UHGV virus genome: UHGV-1280367
DNA: 29,457 nt
Reading direction: 5' to 3' (one strand)
DNA from: a virus
Position 1 is the stretch's first letter; the number at the start of each line of letters is the position of its first letter. The notes under the pieces are model-generated. The model was not told where the DNA came from. It made no database searches and saw only the letters and a program-made list of their open reading frames with translations. A program made the translations under genes and the position numbers. Below are positions 9,433 through 20,790 of the stretch, one piece after another.

Positions 9433-9633
9433 ATGGAAATCATTACACGTATTGATGCCGCAAAGCGCGGACTTAAACGCTACTACACCGGAAAAACATG
9501 TAAGCACGGACATGACAGTGAACGCTGGGTTTACAACGGACACTGTGTTGAGTGCACCATGGAATCAAACCGTCGTATCAGGGCAGAGATTAAGCAGATC
9601 ATGATTAATTCCTCCCCACAACATTCAAGCTGA
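9433..9633 (+). CDS. Small zinc-ribbon protein (Cys/His cluster), possible cII-like regulator
   Basis: 66 aa from the ATG at 9433, with an AGGGA-type ribosome-binding site upstream. Motif C-x-H-G-H ... C-x-x-C. Assigned by position between cro and O; function unproven. Confidence 0.4.
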   Translation: MEIITRIDAAKRGLKRYYTGKTCKHGHDSERWVYNGHCVECTMESNRRIRAEIKQIMINSSPQHSS

Positions 9634-9648
9634 TAGCGGAGATTAATC

Positions 9649-10464
9649 ATGAGCAGACATGCAACAGATTGGGCCTGGGAGACAGATCCAGGTAGCTCGT
9701 CATTAAAGCTCATACTGCTCTCGATGGCTGACAGAGCCGATGAATATAACCTCTGCTACCCCAGCATAGAACGCCTCGTTAAAGACACTTGCCTGAATAA
9801 AAAAACCGTGCAGGCCGGGCTTATATCGCTCATGAAAATGGGGCTTATTTCAGATACCGGAGAGAGAAAGGGAGCGACGAAAAGAGTGCGGGTTTTCTCT
9901 CTTAATATAACCAAAAACGGGAACATTAAAGGCAACCGGGAAGGGGGTAATGAACCCGAAAACGGTAATGTTACCGAAAACGGGAATATACCCAAAAACG
10001 GGATGTTGAATGATCCCAAAAACGGGATGTTGAATGATCCCAAAAACGGGATCCAGAACCAGTCATATAACCAGTCATTTAACCAAGAGAGGGAGAGCAG
10101 GACAAAAACCGGGGATTCTGTTCCTCATGACCCCGGCGCAAACAACGCCGTGATGAATAACTTTGTTCCTCCTGGTGGGCCAGGGCAATTAGGCAAATTT
10201 GTCATGCATGAACAATGGCAGCCATCAGATGACTTTCTTCGGAAAAGCTCATTGCAGGGGATCTACCTGGACAGTCTGCCAACGGCACAGGAACTTGCAG
10301 AGTTCAGAATTTACTGGATGGCTGAGGGTAAGGCATACCATCAGGCACAGTGGGAGCAGAAGCTGGCAAGGCGGCTGCAGATTAGCAGACAGAAGCAATC
10401 AACATTACCTGATAACAACGTTCCGCACTGGAACAGCCCTGAAGCGTGGGAGGATTTCTTGTGA
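9649..10464 (+). CDS. Replication initiator (lambda O-like, N-terminal HTH, DnaT-like C-terminus)
   Basis: 271 aa. The N-terminus resembles the phage replisome-organiser N-domain; the gene contains DNA iterons; it is followed by a lambda P-like gene. Confidence 0.7.
   Translation: MSRHATDWAWETDPGSSSLKLILLSMADRADEYNLCYPSIERLVKDTCLNKKTVQAGLISLMKMGLISDTGERKGATKRVRVFSLNITKNGNIKGNREGGNEPENGNVTENGNIPKNGMLNDPKNGMLNDPKNGIQNQSYNQSFNQERESRTKTGDSVPHDPGANNAVMNNFVPPGGPGQLGKFVMHEQWQPSDDFLRKSSLQGIYLDSLPTAQELAEFRIYWMAEGKAYHQAQWEQKLARRLQISRQKQSTLPDNNVPHWNSPEAWEDFL
9911..10049. repeat. Origin-like iteron array: six direct repeats of CC(A/G)AAAACGG
   Basis: Copies start at 9911, 9956, 9974, 9992, 10016 and 10040 (spacings 45, 18, 18, 24, 24 bp). 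They encode the peptide repeats PKNGMLND and lie inside the initiator gene, as in lambda ori. Confidence 0.7.
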
Positions 10465-11246
10465 ACAACGTTTTTACCGCGATACAAAACCGTGACGGAG
10501 AAGCCCTTTCTCGCATGTCAGGTTATGAGCATCAGTACGTCAACAATGACAATGTGGTGAACATGTCAGCAGAGAGGCTTGTTGATGCCCTTTTCAAACA
10601 GCTGAAACAACTGTTTCCGGCGGCAGTGGTAACCAACCTGAAGACGCCAGAGCAGGAAGTTGCTGCAAAACAGCAGTGGATTGCTGCGTTTGCCGAAGGG
10701 GGAATACGTACCCGTGAACAGGTTTCTGCTGGTATGCGCCACGCCCGCGCCAGTGAATCTCCGTTCTGGCCGTCGCCAGGGCAATTCATCAAGTGGTGTA
10801 AAGACAGCAAGATGGTTCTTGGCGTCACCATTGACGATGTGATGGCGGAGTTTCACCGGTACAGCAAGGAAAAAAGTTTATATCCTGGTGGTCCCGAAAG
10901 ATTCCCGTGGCGGCATCCGGTTATGTACTGGGTCGTATGTGATACACGCCGTGCAATGTATCAGCGCCAGCTTAGCGAGATTGAGGTTGAGAAACACGCG
11001 CGCAGGCTGCTCGATGATTGGGCGAAAAAGGTGGCTTCCGGACAGCAGATACCCGATCCGGTGATCAGCATACAGGCAAAGCCAGAACCCATGAGTACAC
11101 CTCCGGACACAGGGAGAGACGTTTACCATCCACCAGGGCGAAGTTTCGGGTGCATGCCTAACGCCGCCACCCTGGGGGGAATAACACCGGCGCAGTGGCT
11201 GATGGAGGAATACAGGCGGGGAAAGGCGGCAGGATTTATCAAGTAA
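10446..11246 (+). CDS. Replication protein P-like helicase loader
   Basis: The block FPAAVVTNLK...QQWIAAFAEGGIRTREQVSAGMRHARASESPFWPSPGQFIKWC parallels lambda P (FPAS...RRQWVLAFRENGITTMEQVNAGMRVARRQNRPFLPSPGQFVAWC) as I recall it. Start could be GTG at 10446 or GTG at 10461 overlapping the O stop. Confidence 0.8.
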   Translation: MGGFLVNNVFTAIQNRDGEALSRMSGYEHQYVNNDNVVNMSAERLVDALFKQLKQLFPAAVVTNLKTPEQEVAAKQQWIAAFAEGGIRTREQVSAGMRHARASESPFWPSPGQFIKWCKDSKMVLGVTIDDVMAEFHRYSKEKSLYPGGPERFPWRHPVMYWVVCDTRRAMYQRQLSEIEVEKHARRLLDDWAKKVASGQQIPDPVISIQAKPEPMSTPPDTGRDVYHPPGRSFGCMPNAATLGGITPAQWLMEEYRRGKAAGFIK

Positions 11247-11251
11247 TACCA

Positions 11252-11271
11252 GCGCGATGGCGCATTTTTTT
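11252..11271 (+). terminator. Weak terminator-like hairpin plus T-run after the P-like gene
   Basis: gcgc-gatg-gcgc followed by a T7 run; the stem is only 4 bp. Confidence 0.3.
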
Positions 11272-11283
11272 ACGTCTCGATGA

Positions 11284-11360
11284 TTACCTTCTAGGTAATA
11301 AAATATTCTAAAATCTATTGATTTCGTGTCTTATGTGGTTTTTAATTACCTCAGAGGTAA
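11284..11360. promoter_or_regulatory. Two TTACC-N5-GGTAA palindromes (11284..11298, 11346..11360) upstream of the DUF1064-like gene
   Basis: TTACC-ttcta-GGTAA and TTACC-tcaga-GGTAA. The second overlaps the ribosome-binding region of the gene starting at 11364. Confidence 0.5.
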
Positions 11361-11363
11361 ATC

Positions 11364-11708
11364 ATGAGAAAACAGATACAGGCTCTTGGTCGACTCAAAA
11401 CAGGCCAGATGAACAAAACAGAATCTGCGTATTGCCAGCACCTTGAGCAGCGTAAACGTGCAGGGGAAATCGCCTGGTATCGATTCGAGGGTATCAAGCT
11501 GCGGTTAGCTGACAACACGTTCTATACGCCCGATTTTGCTGTGATGCTCGCCACCGGCGAGATGGAACTGCACGAAGTGAAAGGTTTCTGGACCGACGAC
11601 GCCAGAGTGAAAACCAAAGTCGCCGCAGATCAGTATCCGTTCCGAATCATCGGGGTAACGGTTAAACCAAAGAAAGCAGGTGGTGGCTGGAACATCGAAG
11701 AGTTCTGA
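11364..11708 (+). CDS. DUF1064-like small protein
   Basis: 114 aa; pattern AGEI...Y.PDF.V...E.HEVKG resembles the DUF1064 family common in lambdoid early regions (recognition by eye). Confidence 0.5.
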   Translation: MRKQIQALGRLKTGQMNKTESAYCQHLEQRKRAGEIAWYRFEGIKLRLADNTFYTPDFAVMLATGEMELHEVKGFWTDDARVKTKVAADQYPFRIIGVTVKPKKAGGGWNIEEF

Positions 11709-11769
11709 ATCGACGATCTTTTTAGTTATCAATGTAATCAATAAGTTATGTGGATAAGCGAGGGTAAAG

Positions 11770-12330
11770 ATGGAAAGTAATATCAAAGGGTTAGTTTACG
11801 CCGGGCATGAGATGGCTTCGGAACTGAAAGCAGAATGTGGTGCCGTTGATATGCGTAGTGTGGCAAAGCTGATCAGCGATTTGGCAACGCAACTGGAAGT
11901 GCAACTGGTGCGTGCTAATGCGATGGCGTCGGAGAATGAGGCGTTGAAGTCGAACCTGATTTACTGGGGCGGCGAAGATTCAGGGGCTGTCAGAAGTCCG
12001 CTTGATTACGCCCGTGCAGCCGGGCTGGAATCTGGAGAGGAGTTTGAGATGCAAGTGGCAGCCAGAATGCCGAACCTGACTTATCGCGTTGTGTCGAATT
12101 CCCGATTCAGAACAACAATAGAACTGGTTGACGGATCATTGCCGGAAACCCCAGCCACCGATGCTTTTCTGGCTGAAGTACGGGCGCAGGCGTTTAATGA
12201 CCTTTGCTCGGCGTTCGTTAAACACGCGAATCTCGCGGGAATGGATGATGGTGAGCTAGTGAGTCTTAAATATGCGACGGACGCCCTGCTGCATTGTGCG
12301 GAACAGCTTCGCAAAGGAGGCAACCAGTGA
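11770..12330 (+). CDS. Hypothetical protein
   Basis: 186-aa ORF with compact spacing to its neighbours; no recognisable motif. Confidence 0.4.
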   Translation: MESNIKGLVYAGHEMASELKAECGAVDMRSVAKLISDLATQLEVQLVRANAMASENEALKSNLIYWGGEDSGAVRSPLDYARAAGLESGEEFEMQVAARMPNLTYRVVSNSRFRTTIELVDGSLPETPATDAFLAEVRAQAFNDLCSAFVKHANLAGMDDGELVSLKYATDALLHCAEQLRKGGNQ

Positions 12331-12872
12331 GTGTAACGGTTGAAAAGATTGATGTGTTGTCATTCGTTATAACCGGTGCAGAGCGACTAGATCCGGTTCG
12401 AGTGATGATTGAAAACTACGAACCTGGTAAGGGAAGAATCACCATCACCAGCTACGGAAAAGCGTGGACTGCGGCTTGGTTTGCTATGGGCGGTGATGAT
12501 GTGCAGACGTTCATTAAGCGAGTCAGCAACGACTATCTAATCGACAATTTCGACCCTCAACTGCTAAGCACGGTCGACGATGACAACGATGCAAATCTGC
12601 TTTTCGTGAAGTCAGAAATCATAAAGTTACGAAGAGAGAGAGAAATCGACGCTGTACAGGCTCGCGAAATGTGGGACGAGGCGGAAAACGCCGATGACGT
12701 AAAAGAAAGCTGCTGCTGTTTCGGCGTCGGTAACAAACTACTGAATCTCTTTGGTGATGATCCGTGGTATGCCAACTGGCCAACGATACCAAACCCGAAA
12801 TACCAGTATCTGGAACGCGTACTTAATGCAGTGAGAGACGGTCTTAAGCAAATAGAGAAGGTGGAACCATGA
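12327..12872 (+). CDS. Hypothetical protein
   Basis: GTG start at 12327 overlaps the upstream stop (GTGA), with a strong AAAGGAGG ribosome-binding site 7 nt upstream. Confidence 0.45.
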   Translation: MSVTVEKIDVLSFVITGAERLDPVRVMIENYEPGKGRITITSYGKAWTAAWFAMGGDDVQTFIKRVSNDYLIDNFDPQLLSTVDDDNDANLLFVKSEIIKLRREREIDAVQAREMWDEAENADDVKESCCCFGVGNKLLNLFGDDPWYANWPTIPNPKYQYLERVLNAVRDGLKQIEKVEP

Positions 12873-14402: not shown

Positions 14403-14676
14403 CCTGCAACTTGCCGTCAAAGGTGAATACTTCGATGCCATGATTCGCGGAGATAAAACGGAAGAGTATCGCCTGTGTAATGACTACTGGGAAAAGCGAA
14501 TTATGTTCCGGGAATATGACCGCCTGATTATCACAAAGGGATATCCGAAGCGTGACGATTCCAGCCGCAGAATTGACGTTCCGTATGGCGGCTATGAAAT
14601 CAAGACAATCACACATCCGCACTTCGGCGATAAACCGGTAAAGGTATACGCGATAAAGGTAAATATTGATGGCTAA
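14395..14676 (+). CDS. DUF3850/ASCH-like small protein
   Basis: 93 aa; the start of the protein, LAVKGEYFDAMIRGDKTEEYR, resembles the DUF3850 fold family (recognition by eye). Confidence 0.4.
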   Translation: MANLQLAVKGEYFDAMIRGDKTEEYRLCNDYWEKRIMFREYDRLIITKGYPKRDDSSRRIDVPYGGYEIKTITHPHFGDKPVKVYAIKVNIDG

Positions 14677-15007
14677 ATCAGCAGCAGAGCGCAAAGCCGC
14701 TCAGAGAGCCAGACAAGCTGCATCTGGTGTACGTAAGCTGGAGATTGTGCTTGATGCTCAGGAAATTGAAATGCTGGAGCGTAACTGTGCCACACGTCGC
14801 CCCGGGCGTGCGCCTTACGAATTTGGTGAGTATATAGCGTTACTGATCCGCCAGGATGATGCACGCGTGCGCGGGCGTATAAAATCGATCAGCAGAAAAC
14901 GTTGCGGTAAGTGCGGCGAGAGAGTTCCTGTGAATTCATGCCCGTGTAATGGTGACTCGCAATGCTGGGTAACCAAAGGCTGGCATGAAACGAAATTAAT
15001 AGTGTGA
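14669..15007 (+). CDS. Putative ribbon-helix-helix-like DNA-binding protein with C-terminal Cys-rich zinc finger; candidate late-gene regulator
   Basis: N-terminal ERKAAQRARQAASGVRKLEIVLDAQEIEMLER resembles RHH regulators; C-terminal CGKCGER...CPCNGDSQC cysteine cluster. ATG at 14669 (the track starts at a TTG at 14666). Confidence 0.35.
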   Translation: MAKSAAERKAAQRARQAASGVRKLEIVLDAQEIEMLERNCATRRPGRAPYEFGEYIALLIRQDDARVRGRIKSISRKRCGKCGERVPVNSCPCNGDSQCWVTKGWHETKLIV

Positions 15008-15024
15008 CATGTCACGAAGGTGTT

Positions 15025-15237
15025 ATGCCAAAAATACGCTACGACCTTGAAGATATGAGAGATAACTCAGCAAATTTTCCGAAAGAGGTTAAATTTCTCA
15101 TGCATAAGTATGGTTGCGCCAGGAGGGATATAGTTATCGACAGTCAGCACCCTTGCGGCGAGGATGTAATTTTCATTCGCGGTAAATGGGAAGGGTATCT
15201 TGACGAGAGTTTTTACGATGAATTTGATGGACTTTGA
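15025..15237 (+). CDS. Hypothetical small protein
   Basis: ATG at 15025 preceded by a GAAGGTG ribosome-binding site (the track ORF starts at a GTG at 15004). Confidence 0.35.
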   Translation: MPKIRYDLEDMRDNSANFPKEVKFLMHKYGCARRDIVIDSQHPCGEDVIFIRGKWEGYLDESFYDEFDGL

Positions 15238-15279
15238 ATACTGCCGCCAACTATGGCGGCTTTATTTTGCATGGTACTA

Positions 15280-15312
15280 TTACCACAACGGTAACTATTA
15301 CCACGGTGGTTA
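15280..15312. promoter_or_regulatory. Two operator-like palindromes immediately upstream of terS (15280..15294, 15298..15312)
   Basis: TTACC-acaac-GGTAA and the weaker variant TTACC-acggt-GGTTA, ending at the terS start codon. Confidence 0.4.
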
Positions 15313-15908
15313 TGATGCCTGCTGAACCTAAAACCTATAAACGCAAATCAACGCAATTTAAGCCACTAACAGCAATGCAGGAGGCTTATTGCCAGTCATA
15401 CATCAAAACGCCTGAAAACCAGACTCAGGCAGCGATTAACGCAGGATTCTCCCCAAATACAGCGGCAGTTAAAGCCAGTGTCATGATGCGCGATGAACGC
15501 ATTCAAAAACGGATTGCCGAGCTGATGGAAGAGCGCAACAAACGAATGCGCGTCAGTGCTGATTACGTTCTCATGCGCCTGGTGGAGATCGACCAGATGG
15601 ACGTGATCGACATCCTCAACGACGATGGGAGCCTTAAGCCAATCCGCGAGTGGCCGAAAATCTGGCGCACTACGCTTAGCGGCTTTGATCTGTCATCGAC
15701 CATCATGAACATGAACGAGGATTCGATAGAGACAATCCTCAAAAAAATTAAATGGCCTGACAAGGTGAAGAACCTCGAACTGATTGGTAAGCACGTCGAC
15801 GTCAACGCATTCAAAGAACGCCTGGATGTTAATGTGAATGTGACAATTGCTGATCGCATAGCAGCAGCCAGGAAGCGACTCAAAGAACGTCAGGATGGTA
15901 ATCAGTGA
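15312..15908 (+). CDS. terS: Terminase small subunit
   Basis: From the ATG at 15312 (MMPAEPKT...): QEAYCQSYIKTPENQTQAAINAGFSPNTAAVKASVMMRDERIQKRI is a typical small-terminase N-terminal DNA-binding region. The track's longer N-terminal extension is low-complexity. Confidence 0.7.
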   Translation: MMPAEPKTYKRKSTQFKPLTAMQEAYCQSYIKTPENQTQAAINAGFSPNTAAVKASVMMRDERIQKRIAELMEERNKRMRVSADYVLMRLVEIDQMDVIDILNDDGSLKPIREWPKIWRTTLSGFDLSSTIMNMNEDSIETILKKIKWPDKVKNLELIGKHVDVNAFKERLDVNVNVTIADRIAAARKRLKERQDGNQ

Positions 15909-17380
15909 CAGATACAGCGTTATCTCCTGAAGAGCAGTTGATCGAGGATATTGCAGGGTTCACTCACGATCCGCTTGGCTATGCTCTCTATGCGTTCCCG
16001 TGGGGGGAAGAGGGGACTGAACTGGCACATGCTACCGGCCCACGTCAATGGCAGGCTGATGCGTTCCGAGAGATACGTGATCACCTGCAGAATCCAGAGA
16101 CGCGCTATCAGCCGCTTATGCTGGCACGCGCTTCTGGTCACGGTATTGGTAAATCCGCATTTATCTCAATGCTGATCAACTGGGGCATGTCCACTTGCGA
16201 GGATTGTAAGGTCGTGGTGACCGCCAACACCGACAACCAGCTACGAACGAAGACCTGGCCGGAAATTATCAAGTGGTCAAACCTTGCTATCACGAAAGAC
16301 TGGTTTACCTGTACCGCTACCGCGATGTACAGCAATGACCCTGGGCACGACAAGCGGTGGCGAGCTGACGCAATCCCCTGGTCTGAGCACAACACTGAGG
16401 CATTCGCCGGACTACACAACGAGCGCAAACGCATCATCGTGGTATTCGATGAAGCGTCGAATATTGCCGATCTTGTGTGGGAGGTAGCAGAGGGTGCGCT
16501 GACGGACGAAGACACCGAAATCATCTGGGTGGCGTTCGGGAACCCGACGCGTAACACCGGGCGTTTCCGTGAATGTTTCCGCAAGTACAAACACCGCTGG
16601 AAGTGTGCGCAGATTGACAGCCGGACGGTGGAAGGCACTAACAAACAGCAGTTGCAGAAATGGGTTGATGACTACGGGGAAGACAGCGACTTCGTTAAAA
16701 TCCGTGTGCGCGGCATATTCCCTGATGCATCTGAATTGCAGTTTATCCCTACCGGTCTTACTGATGAGGCAATGAAACGGGTGGTAACCGCTGCGCAGGT
16801 TGCACATGCTCCGGTGATAATCGGCGTTGACCCGGCATACTCAGGCGTTGATGACGCGGTGATATACCTGCGGCAGGGGCTGCACAGTAAGGTGCTGTGG
16901 ACTGGCAACAAGACTACTGACGATCTGATTATGGCGAAGCGTATCGCTGACTTTGAAGACCAGTACCAGGCTGACGCAGTGTTCATCGACTTCGGTTACG
17001 GAACTGGTCTGAAGTCAATCGGTGACGGCTGGGGTCGTACATGGCAACTTGTTCCGTTCGGTGGCGCGTCTACTGACCCGCAGATGCTCAATAAGCGCGG
17101 GGAGATGTTCAACTCATGCAAGACATGGCTGAGGCTGGGCGGCATGCTGGATGACCAGGAAACAGCGGACGACCTGTCGGCGGCAGAGTACAAAGTTCGA
17201 GTGGACGGTAAAATCGTTATCGAACCGAAGGAAGATATCAAGGAGCGGCTTGGGCGCTCGCCGGGTAAAGGCGATGCGCTACTGCTGACGTTTGCTTTCC
17301 CTGTGTCGAAGCGTCTGCGAATTCCCGGGCAGCAGAACCAGCAAGGCAAGGCCATCACAGATTACGATCCCTATGATTAA
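15905..17380 (+). CDS. terL: Terminase large subunit
   Basis: 491 aa. Walker A-like ARASGHGIGKS and Walker B-like IIVVFDEAS, with a nuclease-like C-terminal half. GTG start overlaps the terS stop. Confidence 0.85.
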   Translation: MTDTALSPEEQLIEDIAGFTHDPLGYALYAFPWGEEGTELAHATGPRQWQADAFREIRDHLQNPETRYQPLMLARASGHGIGKSAFISMLINWGMSTCEDCKVVVTANTDNQLRTKTWPEIIKWSNLAITKDWFTCTATAMYSNDPGHDKRWRADAIPWSEHNTEAFAGLHNERKRIIVVFDEASNIADLVWEVAEGALTDEDTEIIWVAFGNPTRNTGRFRECFRKYKHRWKCAQIDSRTVEGTNKQQLQKWVDDYGEDSDFVKIRVRGIFPDASELQFIPTGLTDEAMKRVVTAAQVAHAPVIIGVDPAYSGVDDAVIYLRQGLHSKVLWTGNKTTDDLIMAKRIADFEDQYQADAVFIDFGYGTGLKSIGDGWGRTWQLVPFGGASTDPQMLNKRGEMFNSCKTWLRLGGMLDDQETADDLSAAEYKVRVDGKIVIEPKEDIKERLGRSPGKGDALLLTFAFPVSKRLRIPGQQNQQGKAITDYDPYD

Positions 17381-17430
17381 TCCGCTGGTGGGGATAATGT
17401 CGTTGATATCCTCTGATGAGGATAAAACAA

Positions 17431-17450
17431 AGCCAGCTCATCGGCTGGCT
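17431..17450. terminator. Hairpin after terL and downstream of the reverse cargo gene, possible bidirectional terminator
   Basis: agccagc-tcatcg-gctggct; on the minus strand it is followed by a T-rich tract (ttgtttta). A second hairpin lies at 17407..17424. Confidence 0.4.
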
Positions 17451-17470
17451 GTTTGTGACATGTCACAGAG

Positions 17471-17893
17471 CTAGAAAATAATTTCATCAAATGCAGCATT
17501 TATTGCCTTTGCTTCGCTAATGGCGCCTTGTTTATCGACAATAGCTTTTTTACCAAGCACCTCGGCAAGGCACTGTAGCTTCATGTTGTATAAGTGTTCG
17601 CTCATGTAATCATTATCACTTTTTGCTTTAGCGCAAACAGAGCGAGAAATATCAAACACATCGCCTTTTTCCATTTCAGAACGTTGTGCTGTTATCCAGT
17701 CATGGAACGTAACGCTAGTACCATGGTCTTCTCTAAGAGTTAACCCGGTCAGCCCCTCACTCTGAATTACTTCGTAATGCATTTCATTACCAGCAAAAAC
17801 GCCATAAAAAATGCAGTCTTCAGCCTGAACGATACGAGAATATTTTAATGGCCATTCATTTAGATACTTAGCCAACATATCAATTGTCTTCAT
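17471..17893 (-). CDS. Reverse-oriented cargo gene of unknown function (140 aa)
   Basis: The only minus-strand gene inside the late region. Visibly more AT-rich than its flanks. Ribosome-binding site AAGGTGAG ahead of the ATG. No motif I recognise; soluble, no transmembrane segment. Confidence 0.6.
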   Translation of the reverse strand: MKTIDMLAKYLNEWPLKYSRIVQAEDCIFYGVFAGNEMHYEVIQSEGLTGLTLREDHGTSVTFHDWITAQRSEMEKGDVFDISRSVCAKAKSDNDYMSEHLYNMKLQCLAEVLGKKAIVDKQGAISEAKAINAAFDEIIF

Positions 17894-18092: not shown

Positions 18093-18169
18093 TGGCGTGG
18101 CATGCAGGATTCGAACCTGCGACCAACCGCTTAGAAGGCGGTTGCTCTGTCCAGCTGAGCTAATGCCAC
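18093..18169 (-). tRNA. tRNA-Arg, anticodon UCU
   Basis: Minus-strand sequence GTGGCATTAGCTCAGCTGGACAGAGCAACCGCCTTCTAAGCGGTTGGTCGCAGGTTCGAATCCTGCATGCCACGCCA folds by eye into a cloverleaf: 7-bp acceptor stem, D arm GCTC/GAGC, anticodon loop CTTCTAA, T arm GCAGG-TTCGAAT-CCTGC, encoded CCA. Close to E. coli argU as I recall it. Confidence 0.85.
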
Positions 18170-18817: not shown

Positions 18818-20497
18818 ATGGCGGAAACAACTAAAGAGCGATTGAACAAACAGTTCGCACAACTTGAAAGCGAGCGTCAGTCGTTCGAGCCGCACTGGCG
18901 CGAGTTGAGTGATTACATCAACCCGCGTGGTTCCCGCTTTCTGACTTCTGAGGTCAACCGTAACGATCGACGCAATACACGCATTATTGATTCGACCGGG
19001 ACTATGGCGGCGCGCACTCTCGCCAGCGGCATGATGTCAGGCATCACAAGCCCCGCGCGTCCGTGGTTTCGCCTGGCTACGCCAGATCCTGAAATGATGG
19101 ATTATGGCCCTGTTAAGTTGTGGCTTGAGGCGGTGCAGAACCGCATGAACGATATGTTCAATAAGTCGAATCTCTATCAGTCGCTGCCGCAGTTATACGG
19201 AAGCCTCGGCACATACAGCACTGGTGCAATGGCAGTGCTGGAGGATGACGAGGACATCATTCGCACAATGCCATTCCCGATAGGAAGTTACTACCTGGCT
19301 AACTCACCTCGTGGCAGTGTGGACACCTGTTTTCGCAAGTTCTCTATGACTGTTCGTCAGCTTGTTCAGGAGTTCGGGCTAAATAACGTCAGCGAATCCG
19401 TAAAAAGCATGTGGGAAAGCGGCACCTACGAGAAGTGGATTGAAGTGATGCATTCGGTTTACCCGAACATTGACCGCGATACATCGAAGCTGGATAGCAA
19501 GAACAAGCCATTCAAATCGGTTTATTACGAGGTTGGTGGCGATAACGACAAGTTGTTGCGTGAGTCCGGATTCGATGAGTTTCCAATTATGGCTCCGCGC
19601 TGGGAAGTTAACGGCGAAGATGTTTATGGATCATCATGCCCGGGTATGCTGGCGCTTGGACCTGTTAAGGCATTGCAGCTTCTCCAGAAGCGCAAGTCGC
19701 AGTTGATTGATAAAGCCACCAATCCGCCGATGGTTGCTCCGACTTCCCTCAAGAATCAGCGCGCCTCCCTTCTTCCTGGCGACATCACGTATATCGATCA
19801 GATTACTGGTCATGATGGTTTCAGGCCTGCTTATCTGGTTAACCCCAGTACAGCAGATTTGGTGGCAGACATTCAGGACACTCGTCAAATCATTAACAGC
19901 GCCTACTTTGTCGATCTGTTCATGATGTTGCAGAACATCAATACCCGCTCGATGCCTGTTGAAGCGGTGATCGAAATGAAAGAAGAAAAACTTCTGATGT
20001 TGGGGCCGGTTCTGGAGCGTCTGAACGACGAATGTCTTAATCCTCTCATTGACCGCGCTTTCTCGATGATGGTGCGTAAAAACATGCTGCCGCCACCGCC
20101 TGACGCGATGGAAGGTATGCCCCTGAAGGTCGAATACATTTCCGTCATGGCTCAGGCGCAGAAGTCTATCGGCCTGTCCAGTCTGGCGTCTACGGTCAAC
20201 TTCATTGGTCAACTTGCGCAAGCGAAACCAGAAGCTCTCGACAAACTCAACGTTGATCAGGCGATCGATGCATTCGCTGATATGTCCGGAGTGTCTCCAA
20301 CCGTCATTGTTCCGCAGGAACAGGTTGAGCAGGCTCGCCAGCAACGGGCACAGCAACAACAGCAGCAACAAATGATGGAGATGGGGATGGCGGCGGCACA
20401 GGGTGCCAAGACGCTAAGCGAAGCTAAAACTTCGGATCCGAGTGTTTTGTCAGCTATGGCGAATGCAGTTAGTGGTCAGGGTGGGCAATCACAATGA
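18818..20497 (+). CDS. Portal (head-to-tail connector) protein, T7 gp8-like
   Basis: 559 aa. The C-terminal Gln-rich tail QARQQRAQQQQQQQMMEMGMAAAQGA parallels the T7 gp8 C-terminus (QKQQKMAQQSMQMGMDNGAAALAQG) as I recall it. Size and position fit. Confidence 0.75.
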   Translation: MAETTKERLNKQFAQLESERQSFEPHWRELSDYINPRGSRFLTSEVNRNDRRNTRIIDSTGTMAARTLASGMMSGITSPARPWFRLATPDPEMMDYGPVKLWLEAVQNRMNDMFNKSNLYQSLPQLYGSLGTYSTGAMAVLEDDEDIIRTMPFPIGSYYLANSPRGSVDTCFRKFSMTVRQLVQEFGLNNVSESVKSMWESGTYEKWIEVMHSVYPNIDRDTSKLDSKNKPFKSVYYEVGGDNDKLLRESGFDEFPIMAPRWEVNGEDVYGSSCPGMLALGPVKALQLLQKRKSQLIDKATNPPMVAPTSLKNQRASLLPGDITYIDQITGHDGFRPAYLVNPSTADLVADIQDTRQIINSAYFVDLFMMLQNINTRSMPVEAVIEMKEEKLLMLGPVLERLNDECLNPLIDRAFSMMVRKNMLPPPPDAMEGMPLKVEYISVMAQAQKSIGLSSLASTVNFIGQLAQAKPEALDKLNVDQAIDAFADMSGVSPTVIVPQEQVEQARQQRAQQQQQQQMMEMGMAAAQGAKTLSEAKTSDPSVLSAMANAVSGQGGQSQ

Positions 20498-20790
20498 CAG
20501 ATTACGAAGACGATCAACTGAAAGAAGAAAACGCCCGTAAGCAACGTGACATGGCGCAGCGTGAAATTGATGACATTCGCTTTGTCATGAGCAGTGAACA
20601 GGGGCGTCGCGTTGTCTGGTCTGTGCTGGAGAAAGGCCGGGTGTTTTCCGCTATCTCTCCGATGGACGCTATGGCAATGGCATTTTATGAGGGGCAACGC
20701 AATCTGGCGCTGGAGCTGTTTCAGCGCGTTATGGCGCATTGCCCTGAACAGTATTTGAAGATGGCCAAAGAGGCCAGTGAACAGGAGTGA
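20494..20790 (+). CDS. Hypothetical head-assembly protein
   Basis: 98-aa ORF translationally coupled between the portal and scaffold genes. Confidence 0.4.
   Translation: MTDYEDDQLKEENARKQRDMAQREIDDIRFVMSSEQGRRVVWSVLEKGRVFSAISPMDAMAMAFYEGQRNLALELFQRVMAHCPEQYLKMAKEASEQE

Follow-up and report, generated by a model that had tools for sequence, protein, structure and literature searches.

A palindrome conserved across phage genera is most likely the operator of the phage-encoded phrog_536 protein

The stretch of viral DNA analyzed here (UHGV virus genome UHGV-1280367; 29,457 nucleotides (nt), hereafter called the window in its full length) comes from an epsilon15/phiV10-like temperate podovirus of E. 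coli (Uetakevirus) with 95–98% identity to PAS61, phiV10, and others. It contains exactly two copies of the palindrome GTGACATGTCAC, 12 base pairs (bp) in length, at 15004–15015 and 17455–17466, and we conclude that it represents a genuine cis-element with strong conservation and no previous annotation. Judging from the comparison of phage sequences presented below, the element is under strong purifying selection and most likely serves as the DNA-binding site, or operator, for the phrog_536 protein of the phage itself, a homologue of epsilon15 gp49 and N15 gp46 that is encoded directly at the first copy. Our best explanation of the whole pattern, to which we give about even chances, is that this operator would set transcription boundaries and that the mosaic junctions found beside it would result from selection on the element. 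The main features are:

15003–15016 (core 15004–15015), no strand assigned: site 1, tGTGACATGTCACg, the last conserved bases ahead of variable DNA
17454–17467 (core 17455–17466), no strand assigned: site 2, the perfect 14-bp palindrome TGTGACATGTCACA, between the terL hairpin and the stop codon of the cargo open reading frame (ORF)
14669–15007, plus strand: gp49/gp46-family gene (phrog_536), encoding the proposed binding protein of 112 amino acids (aa)

The string common to both copies is 13 nt long (TGTGACATGTCAC). A preliminary description of this DNA had reported two exact copies of the palindrome at gene boundaries, which is borne out by exact matches in the window with the second copy at precisely the coordinates given and the first copy (placed at 15005–15016) one base further upstream. 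As also described, the first copy overlaps the upstream stop codon in the short gap before the next ORF, with the TGA of ORF 14669–15007 at 15005–15007 inside the site and the next ATG, at 15025, 9 nt further on. The second copy indeed lies 3' of the cargo gene and beside the hairpin after terL: the hairpin at 17431–17450 ends 4 nt before site 2, and the stop codon of the minus-strand ORF 17471–17893 follows 4 nt beyond it. A near-copy, GTGACATGGCGC, with two mismatches is found at 20546–20557 inside ORF 20494–20790, and phiV10 and PAS61 carry GTGACATGGCAC (one mismatch) at the equivalent place; this may be a weak extra site or a coincidence.

Searching related phages for the motif at mosaic boundaries, as had been proposed, located the exact 12-mer at both equivalent boundaries in PAS61, phiV10, the Salmonella phage epsilon15, and the Enterobacter phage Tyrion. 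Site 1 is found at the stop codon in epsilon15, Tyrion, BUCT711, and PAS61, and site 2 is conserved in phiV10, epsilon15, Tyrion, and PAS61. The relatives carry a third copy (site 3) at the end of the structural operon, beyond this window, where it overlaps or directly follows the stop codon of the last structural gene with a terminator hairpin 1–10 nt away. Klebsiella phage BUCT711 has sites 1 and 3 as well as two sites inside virion genes. Between genera, i.e., among the E. coli, Salmonella, Enterobacter, and Klebsiella relatives, the sequences flanking the sites are unrelated. Among 80 relatives from IMG/VR, site 1 is intact in 78 and the other two loci end at the site. Most of the relatives also have an intact site 2, but a point mutation is seen in it in about 7 loci, and about 9 with other genes after terL lack it. 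The center of the element is AT in 127 of the 128 sites of Uetakevirus-type loci.

The element extends well beyond the Uetakeviruses. Its general form is YGTGAC-NN-GTCACR, with Y at -1 and R at +13 in 25 independent contexts. Most motif-bearing lineages examined have it two to four times per genome, and a P2-like Yersinia phage has it once, as an exact copy. Three copies are present in the Pectobacterium myovirus ZF40, whose protein is 67% identical, with TGTGACATGTCACA located 2 nt past the gene's stop codon and two more copies inside gp08 and gp12. N15 and phiKO2 (proteins 35–37% identical) each carry three homologous copies of GTGAC-TG-GTCAC. The gene 46 stop codon falls within one of them, another precedes the antirepressor operon, and the remaining one is internal to repA. 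Two copies of GTGAC-AC-GTCAC occur within 7.7 kilobases (kb) of Vibrio phage K303, whose small terminase gene lies 30 nt downstream of one of them. Only 0.007–0.05 copies are expected per genome or stretch examined, and the Poisson P ranges from 1e-5 to 1e-7 for seven of the nine, with weaker values for phiV10 (6e-4) and the Yersinia phage (2e-2). Across 49 N15-type loci (913 kb) we counted 110 sites versus 0.87 expected, with one site of a locus always at the gene's stop codon, and the center was TG/CA in 101 of these 110. N15-type and Uetakevirus-type groups both infect E. coli.

Two of these contexts merit separate mention. In N15 at 9494–9559 (minus strand), the copy upstream of the antirepressor operon lies 25–36 nt upstream of the promoter-like sequence TTGACG-18-TAGAGT and is centered at about -66, a position that would suit an activator too. 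In loci L079–L088 (around 10001–12353), a gp49 homologue of 88% identity has the palindrome 10 nt after its stop codon and, next to it, genes for a phrog_585 protein and an integrase in place of the terminase genes, which places the gene-plus-site cassette in yet another prophage architecture. The motif strings gave no relevant match in the literature searched, and a paper on Uetakevirus regulation covers the repressor, antirepressor, and integrase but does not treat the gp49-family protein.

What links these sites to one protein is their distribution. ORF 14669–15007 corresponds to epsilon15 gp49 and PhiV10p55, and its phrog_536 label reads "transcriptional regulator". The 112-aa protein has an isoelectric point of 9.8, 23 lysines and arginines, a conserved core (M35–R61), and four conserved cysteines near its C-terminus. 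In a six-frame set of epsilon15 ORFs, gp49 is the only one with homologues in all five motif-bearing groups. The central dinucleotide tracks the protein clade, with AT in the Uetakevirus type versus TG in the N15 type, and PY54, an N15-like telomere phage of Yersinia, has neither a homologue of the gene nor a site even at one mismatch. On this comparative evidence, the remote sites, the clade-specific centers, and the case of PY54 go beyond simple linkage. Family members are widespread, with more than 1,100 database matches at E <= 0.001 (cluster representatives at 90% identity) from podo-, myo-, and siphoviruses as well as linear-plasmid prophages of Enterobacterales and Vibrio; two homologue listings seeded with the window protein and its alignment gave near-identical proteins only. 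Of the two roles that the preliminary description had considered, a regulator binding site is therefore the better supported by comparison, given the signs of strong purifying selection and the co-occurrence only with a gp49/gp46-family gene. We infer the binding itself, since the searches against protein families, PDB sequences, and Foldseek gave no match in support of a fold for the phrog_536 protein.

The position of the sites in Uetakeviruses points to a possible function. The features around them are:

15025–15237, plus strand: 70-aa ORF (phrog_1541, no function assigned), a variable insert that separates site 1 from the terminator
15243–15260, plus strand: hairpin resembling an intrinsic terminator, GCCGCCAACTATGGCGGC and then TTTATTTT, located after site 1 and ahead of the terminase genes
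15234–17380, plus strand: terminase module with small subunit (15234–15908) and large subunit (terL, 15905–17380), bracketed by both palindromes
17431–17450, no strand assigned: terminator hairpin AGCCAGCtcatcgGCTGGCT with a T-tract that is good on the minus strand and weak on the plus strand, abutting site 2
17471–17893, minus strand: cargo ORF of 140 aa (phrog_4846, no function assigned), one among the alternative minus-strand genes, at least eight in number, that occupy this position in relatives

Each of the Uetakevirus sites 1–3 lies at the end of a transcription unit, 0–41 nt from an intrinsic terminator hairpin. The distance from site 1 to its hairpin is 23–41 nt in most relatives and 227 nt in the window, where the 70-aa ORF, which is missing from about two thirds of close relatives, is inserted between them. 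The hairpin at 15243–15260 is the counterpart of the annotated epsilon15 terminator at 39646–39672, and the phiV10 record annotates the terminator corresponding to 17431–17450 at 2238–2257. This adjacency to terminators at unit ends suggests that a protein bound to the element would set a transcription boundary. A symmetric dimer of the phrog_536 protein could bind the 14-bp element and act as a roadblock or insulator controlling read-through into or between units, with the putative boundaries separating the early operon from the packaging genes, terL from the cargo gene that converges on it, and the structural operon from the leftward genes beyond it. The site beside the protein's own gene would give cis-proximal or autoregulatory loading. 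As a separate observation, the small terminase gene as called, and as annotated in phiV10, has the hairpin at 15243–15260 within its start, and its Pfam match begins only at residue 45, so that the true start of this gene is probably downstream of the terminator.

Several findings weigh against this reading. The sites of N15, ZF40, and Vibrio phage K303 are not adjacent to terminators and instead lie inside genes or at varying distance from promoter-like sequences, so that the boundary role may be lineage-specific or wrong; equally, no common promoter geometry was found at the sites in the window, N15, ZF40, and K303. Site 2 is dispensable, as about 20% of close relatives have a mutated copy or none. 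The association of gene and site is partly plain physical linkage of site 1 to the gene. Moreover, among the listed matches to the 14-mer in IMG/VR, which were short stretches, the family gene is within reach in 31 of 120, and about 45% have no recognizable neighbor; some of these may be chance matches or phages without the gene. The protein itself has no Pfam, NCBIfam, or PDB sequence match, with a CopG-family chain at E = 1.1 as a weak hit in the comparison to PDB sequences. Two AlphaFold monomer models are of low confidence (predicted local distance difference test (pLDDT) scores of 56 and 66), and Foldseek searches with both found no structural neighbor. These models (pLDDT 56–66) place helices at residues 5–18, 30–43, and 52–67 (52–74 in the second model) with a non-helical segment at about 19–29, and this segment together with two of the predicted helices would fit a ribbon-helix-helix unit.

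Another explanation is that the palindrome is a junction or hot spot for the exchange or insertion of modules and cargo and has been kept for that reason, which we consider unlikely. The preliminary description had raised this possibility in the form of a recombination junction marking the cargo insertion, and it was half right: the right flanks of both copies diverge into alternative, unrelated classes of sequence beginning 0–7 nt past the palindrome edge. To the right of site 1, relatives form at least four classes (insertion of the 70-aa ORF, a spacer of 41 nt, a spacer of 23 nt, or another gene), and to the right of site 2 they form at least eight classes of alternative minus-strand genes. 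The gene-plus-site cassette also occurs in at least six different genome architectures. However, the palindrome accompanies every cargo class and is also present with no insert at all, and no recombinase or nuclease co-occurs with it. The element is also not restricted to gene boundaries, with copies inside the virion genes of BUCT711 and in the conserved coding sequences of repA in N15 and phiKO2 as well as gp08 and gp12 in ZF40. Furthermore, 12 bases are short for homologous exchange, and selection on the individual phage would not hold a mere scar identical across genera. Because the element is independent of the cargo and also found inside conserved genes, we read its position at junctions as a consequence of its retention and not as its function. 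The mosaic breakpoints at an operator of this kind would then arise through selection that retains the element while neighboring DNA is exchanged, which makes it a landmark for the positions of cargo gene exchange in these prophages.

A role at the level of RNA, with the transcribed palindrome forming a small hairpin at mRNA 3' ends that affects stability, termination, or coupling, appears quite unlikely to us. Uetakevirus sites do lie in 3' untranslated stretches beside terminators, a hairpin of 4–7 bp with a CAUG loop is predicted, and a ribosome-binding site follows immediately after the element in three contexts. However, the would-be stem is invariant in all lineages without any compensatory change and only the would-be loop varies, which makes an RNA role improbable. 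Site 1 gives no significant z-score for folding, and no Rfam family matches the element, with a tRNA as the only match in the window. The symmetric Y and R flanks and the occurrence of the site in either orientation instead fit a DNA site of two-fold symmetry.

The half-sites GTGACA and TGTCAC are those of matS, the site bound by MatP in the E. coli terminus macrodomain, and all hosts concerned (Enterobacterales and Vibrio) are expected to have MatP. Dropping the central base from the matS consensus (GTGACRNYGTCAC) or the laboratory matS site (GTGACAGTGTCAC) yields the phage motif. One could therefore imagine that the phrog_536 protein and its two to four dispersed sites are a phage-borne counterpart of MatP and matS that copies the matS half-sites, an idea to which we give only a small chance. 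Such a pair might organize or bridge phage DNA or disturb host machinery that reads matS-bound MatP, e.g., in the unloading of MukBEF, and would thus act beyond transcription control. Compared directly to MatP, the window protein has no detectable similarity (BLASTP E = 13; hhalign probability 0.1%). That the element instead recruits host MatP itself, or a similar host protein, is in our view very improbable. All of the phage sites, more than 200 in number, have a spacer of two bases and not three, and neither GTGAC-N3-GTCAC nor the 13-bp matS form (GTGAC-RNY-GTCAC), searched as GTGACNNNGTCAC, was present in the first eight reference loci checked. The different centers, with TG in N15-type and AT in Uetakevirus-type phages, argue against a host reader given that both have an E. 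coli host, and the Yersinia phage PY54 lacks the site. The near-identity of the element to matS raises the question of cross-talk with host chromosome organization.

The resemblance of GTGACA to the promoter element TTGACA in both directions could also mean that the palindrome comprises two back-to-back -35 elements, but we regard this as highly improbable. On the plus strand of the window, positions 17455–17482 do combine GTGACA, a 16-nt spacer, and AATAAT and match at 10 of 12 positions. However, this -10 element lies in window-specific cargo DNA that is not conserved in the other classes, and sites 1 and 3 have no -10 element at the right distance.

Chance repetition of a short word, which the roughly 33 repeated 12-mers expected in a window of this size might seem to favor, has a negligible probability and is already refuted by the exact conservation across genera and the gene-linked distribution of the element. 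The same expectation, obtained from Markov simulations and close to the 38 maximal direct repeats of at least 12 nt in the window, means that the argument of the preliminary description that an exact 12-mer occurring twice in 29 kb exceeds chance is invalid as worded. The window has six perfect 12-bp palindromes, and any such palindrome occurred twice in only 16 of 1500 Markov-simulated sequences (ca. 1%), while the pattern GTGACNNGTCAC was observed twice versus 0.03 times expected. Any remaining doubt about the palindrome is removed by its conservation in other phages.

We also discarded a number of more specific candidates. A genome end or pac site could be suspected from the sequence records of phiV10 and Tyrion, which stop within or at the palindrome, but Tyrion is circularly permuted and the ends of its record are arbitrary; a single packaging site does not fit three sites per genome. 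The repressor sites of epsilon15 have a different motif (ATTACC-N5-GGTAAT). An intrinsic terminator is not compatible with a palindrome stem of only 4–5 bp without a T-tract, and the terminator-like hairpins are its neighbors at 15243–15260 and 17431–17450. The consensus binding site of CRP is TGTGA-N6-TCACA, and the palindrome has four bases between TGTGA and TCACA (TGTGA-CATG-TCACA) instead of six. Independently of the palindrome, the annotated repressor operators of epsilon15 lie at 12–27 and six other places. One of them immediately precedes the small terminase gene, which suggests direct repressor control of packaging genes.

If the pairing of the phrog_536 protein with the palindrome is true, a widespread protein family that has so far been annotated only by guesswork gains a defined DNA target. 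Furthermore, the location of the element at the borders of early transcription versus packaging and late genes makes it a concrete candidate for what separates them in epsilon15-like phages.

Other features of the window are apart from the palindrome. A 336-bp tandem duplication at 1041–1720 (2.0 copies, 99% identity) in a membrane-protein/holin region just upstream of the endolysin-sized ORF 1563–2192 may duplicate or disrupt a lysis gene. ORF 9649–10464, which aligns with the replication-initiator gene of phiV10, contains a 33-nt direct repeat with an offset of 24 nt (9993–10049) that may be iteron-like. Separating the cargo ORF from the portal gene, the minus strand encodes a tRNA-Arg (anticodon TCT) at 18093–18169, and some relatives have a tRNA-Arg annotated here.

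Among known systems, the boundary (linker) sequences of mosaic lambdoid phages are similar in that they are short and conserved, lie where genes meet, and are bordered on one side by DNA that is unrelated among relatives. Unlike them, the element described here is a strict palindrome that is found in unrelated virus types, also occurs inside genes, and is tied to one protein family. The SopB centromere sites of N15 and phiKO2 likewise comprise several palindrome copies scattered over the phage genome, some of them within genes, but they have another sequence (annotated as GTGCGACCACGGTCGCAC in phiKO2); Uetakeviruses integrate into the chromosome, and the annotations of phiV10 and epsilon15 contain no partition genes. 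Ribbon-helix-helix phage repressors such as Arc and Mnt of P22 or the CopG family share the combination of a short palindromic site with a small basic protein encoded nearby, and the extended segment followed by two helices predicted for the phrog_536 protein would fit their fold. However, the sites of the phage element are located at gene 3' ends or inside genes and not over a promoter, and the phrog_536 protein, whose fold has no family or structure match, carries an extra C-terminal module with four cysteines. The matS sites share with the phage element the half-sites GTGAC and GTCAC (usually GTGACA and TGTCAC) in a short perfect palindrome of which few copies are dispersed on one replicon without clustering at promoters. 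In contrast to matS, the phage element has a two-base center (12 versus 13 bp), resides on phage DNA, and tracks a phage protein.

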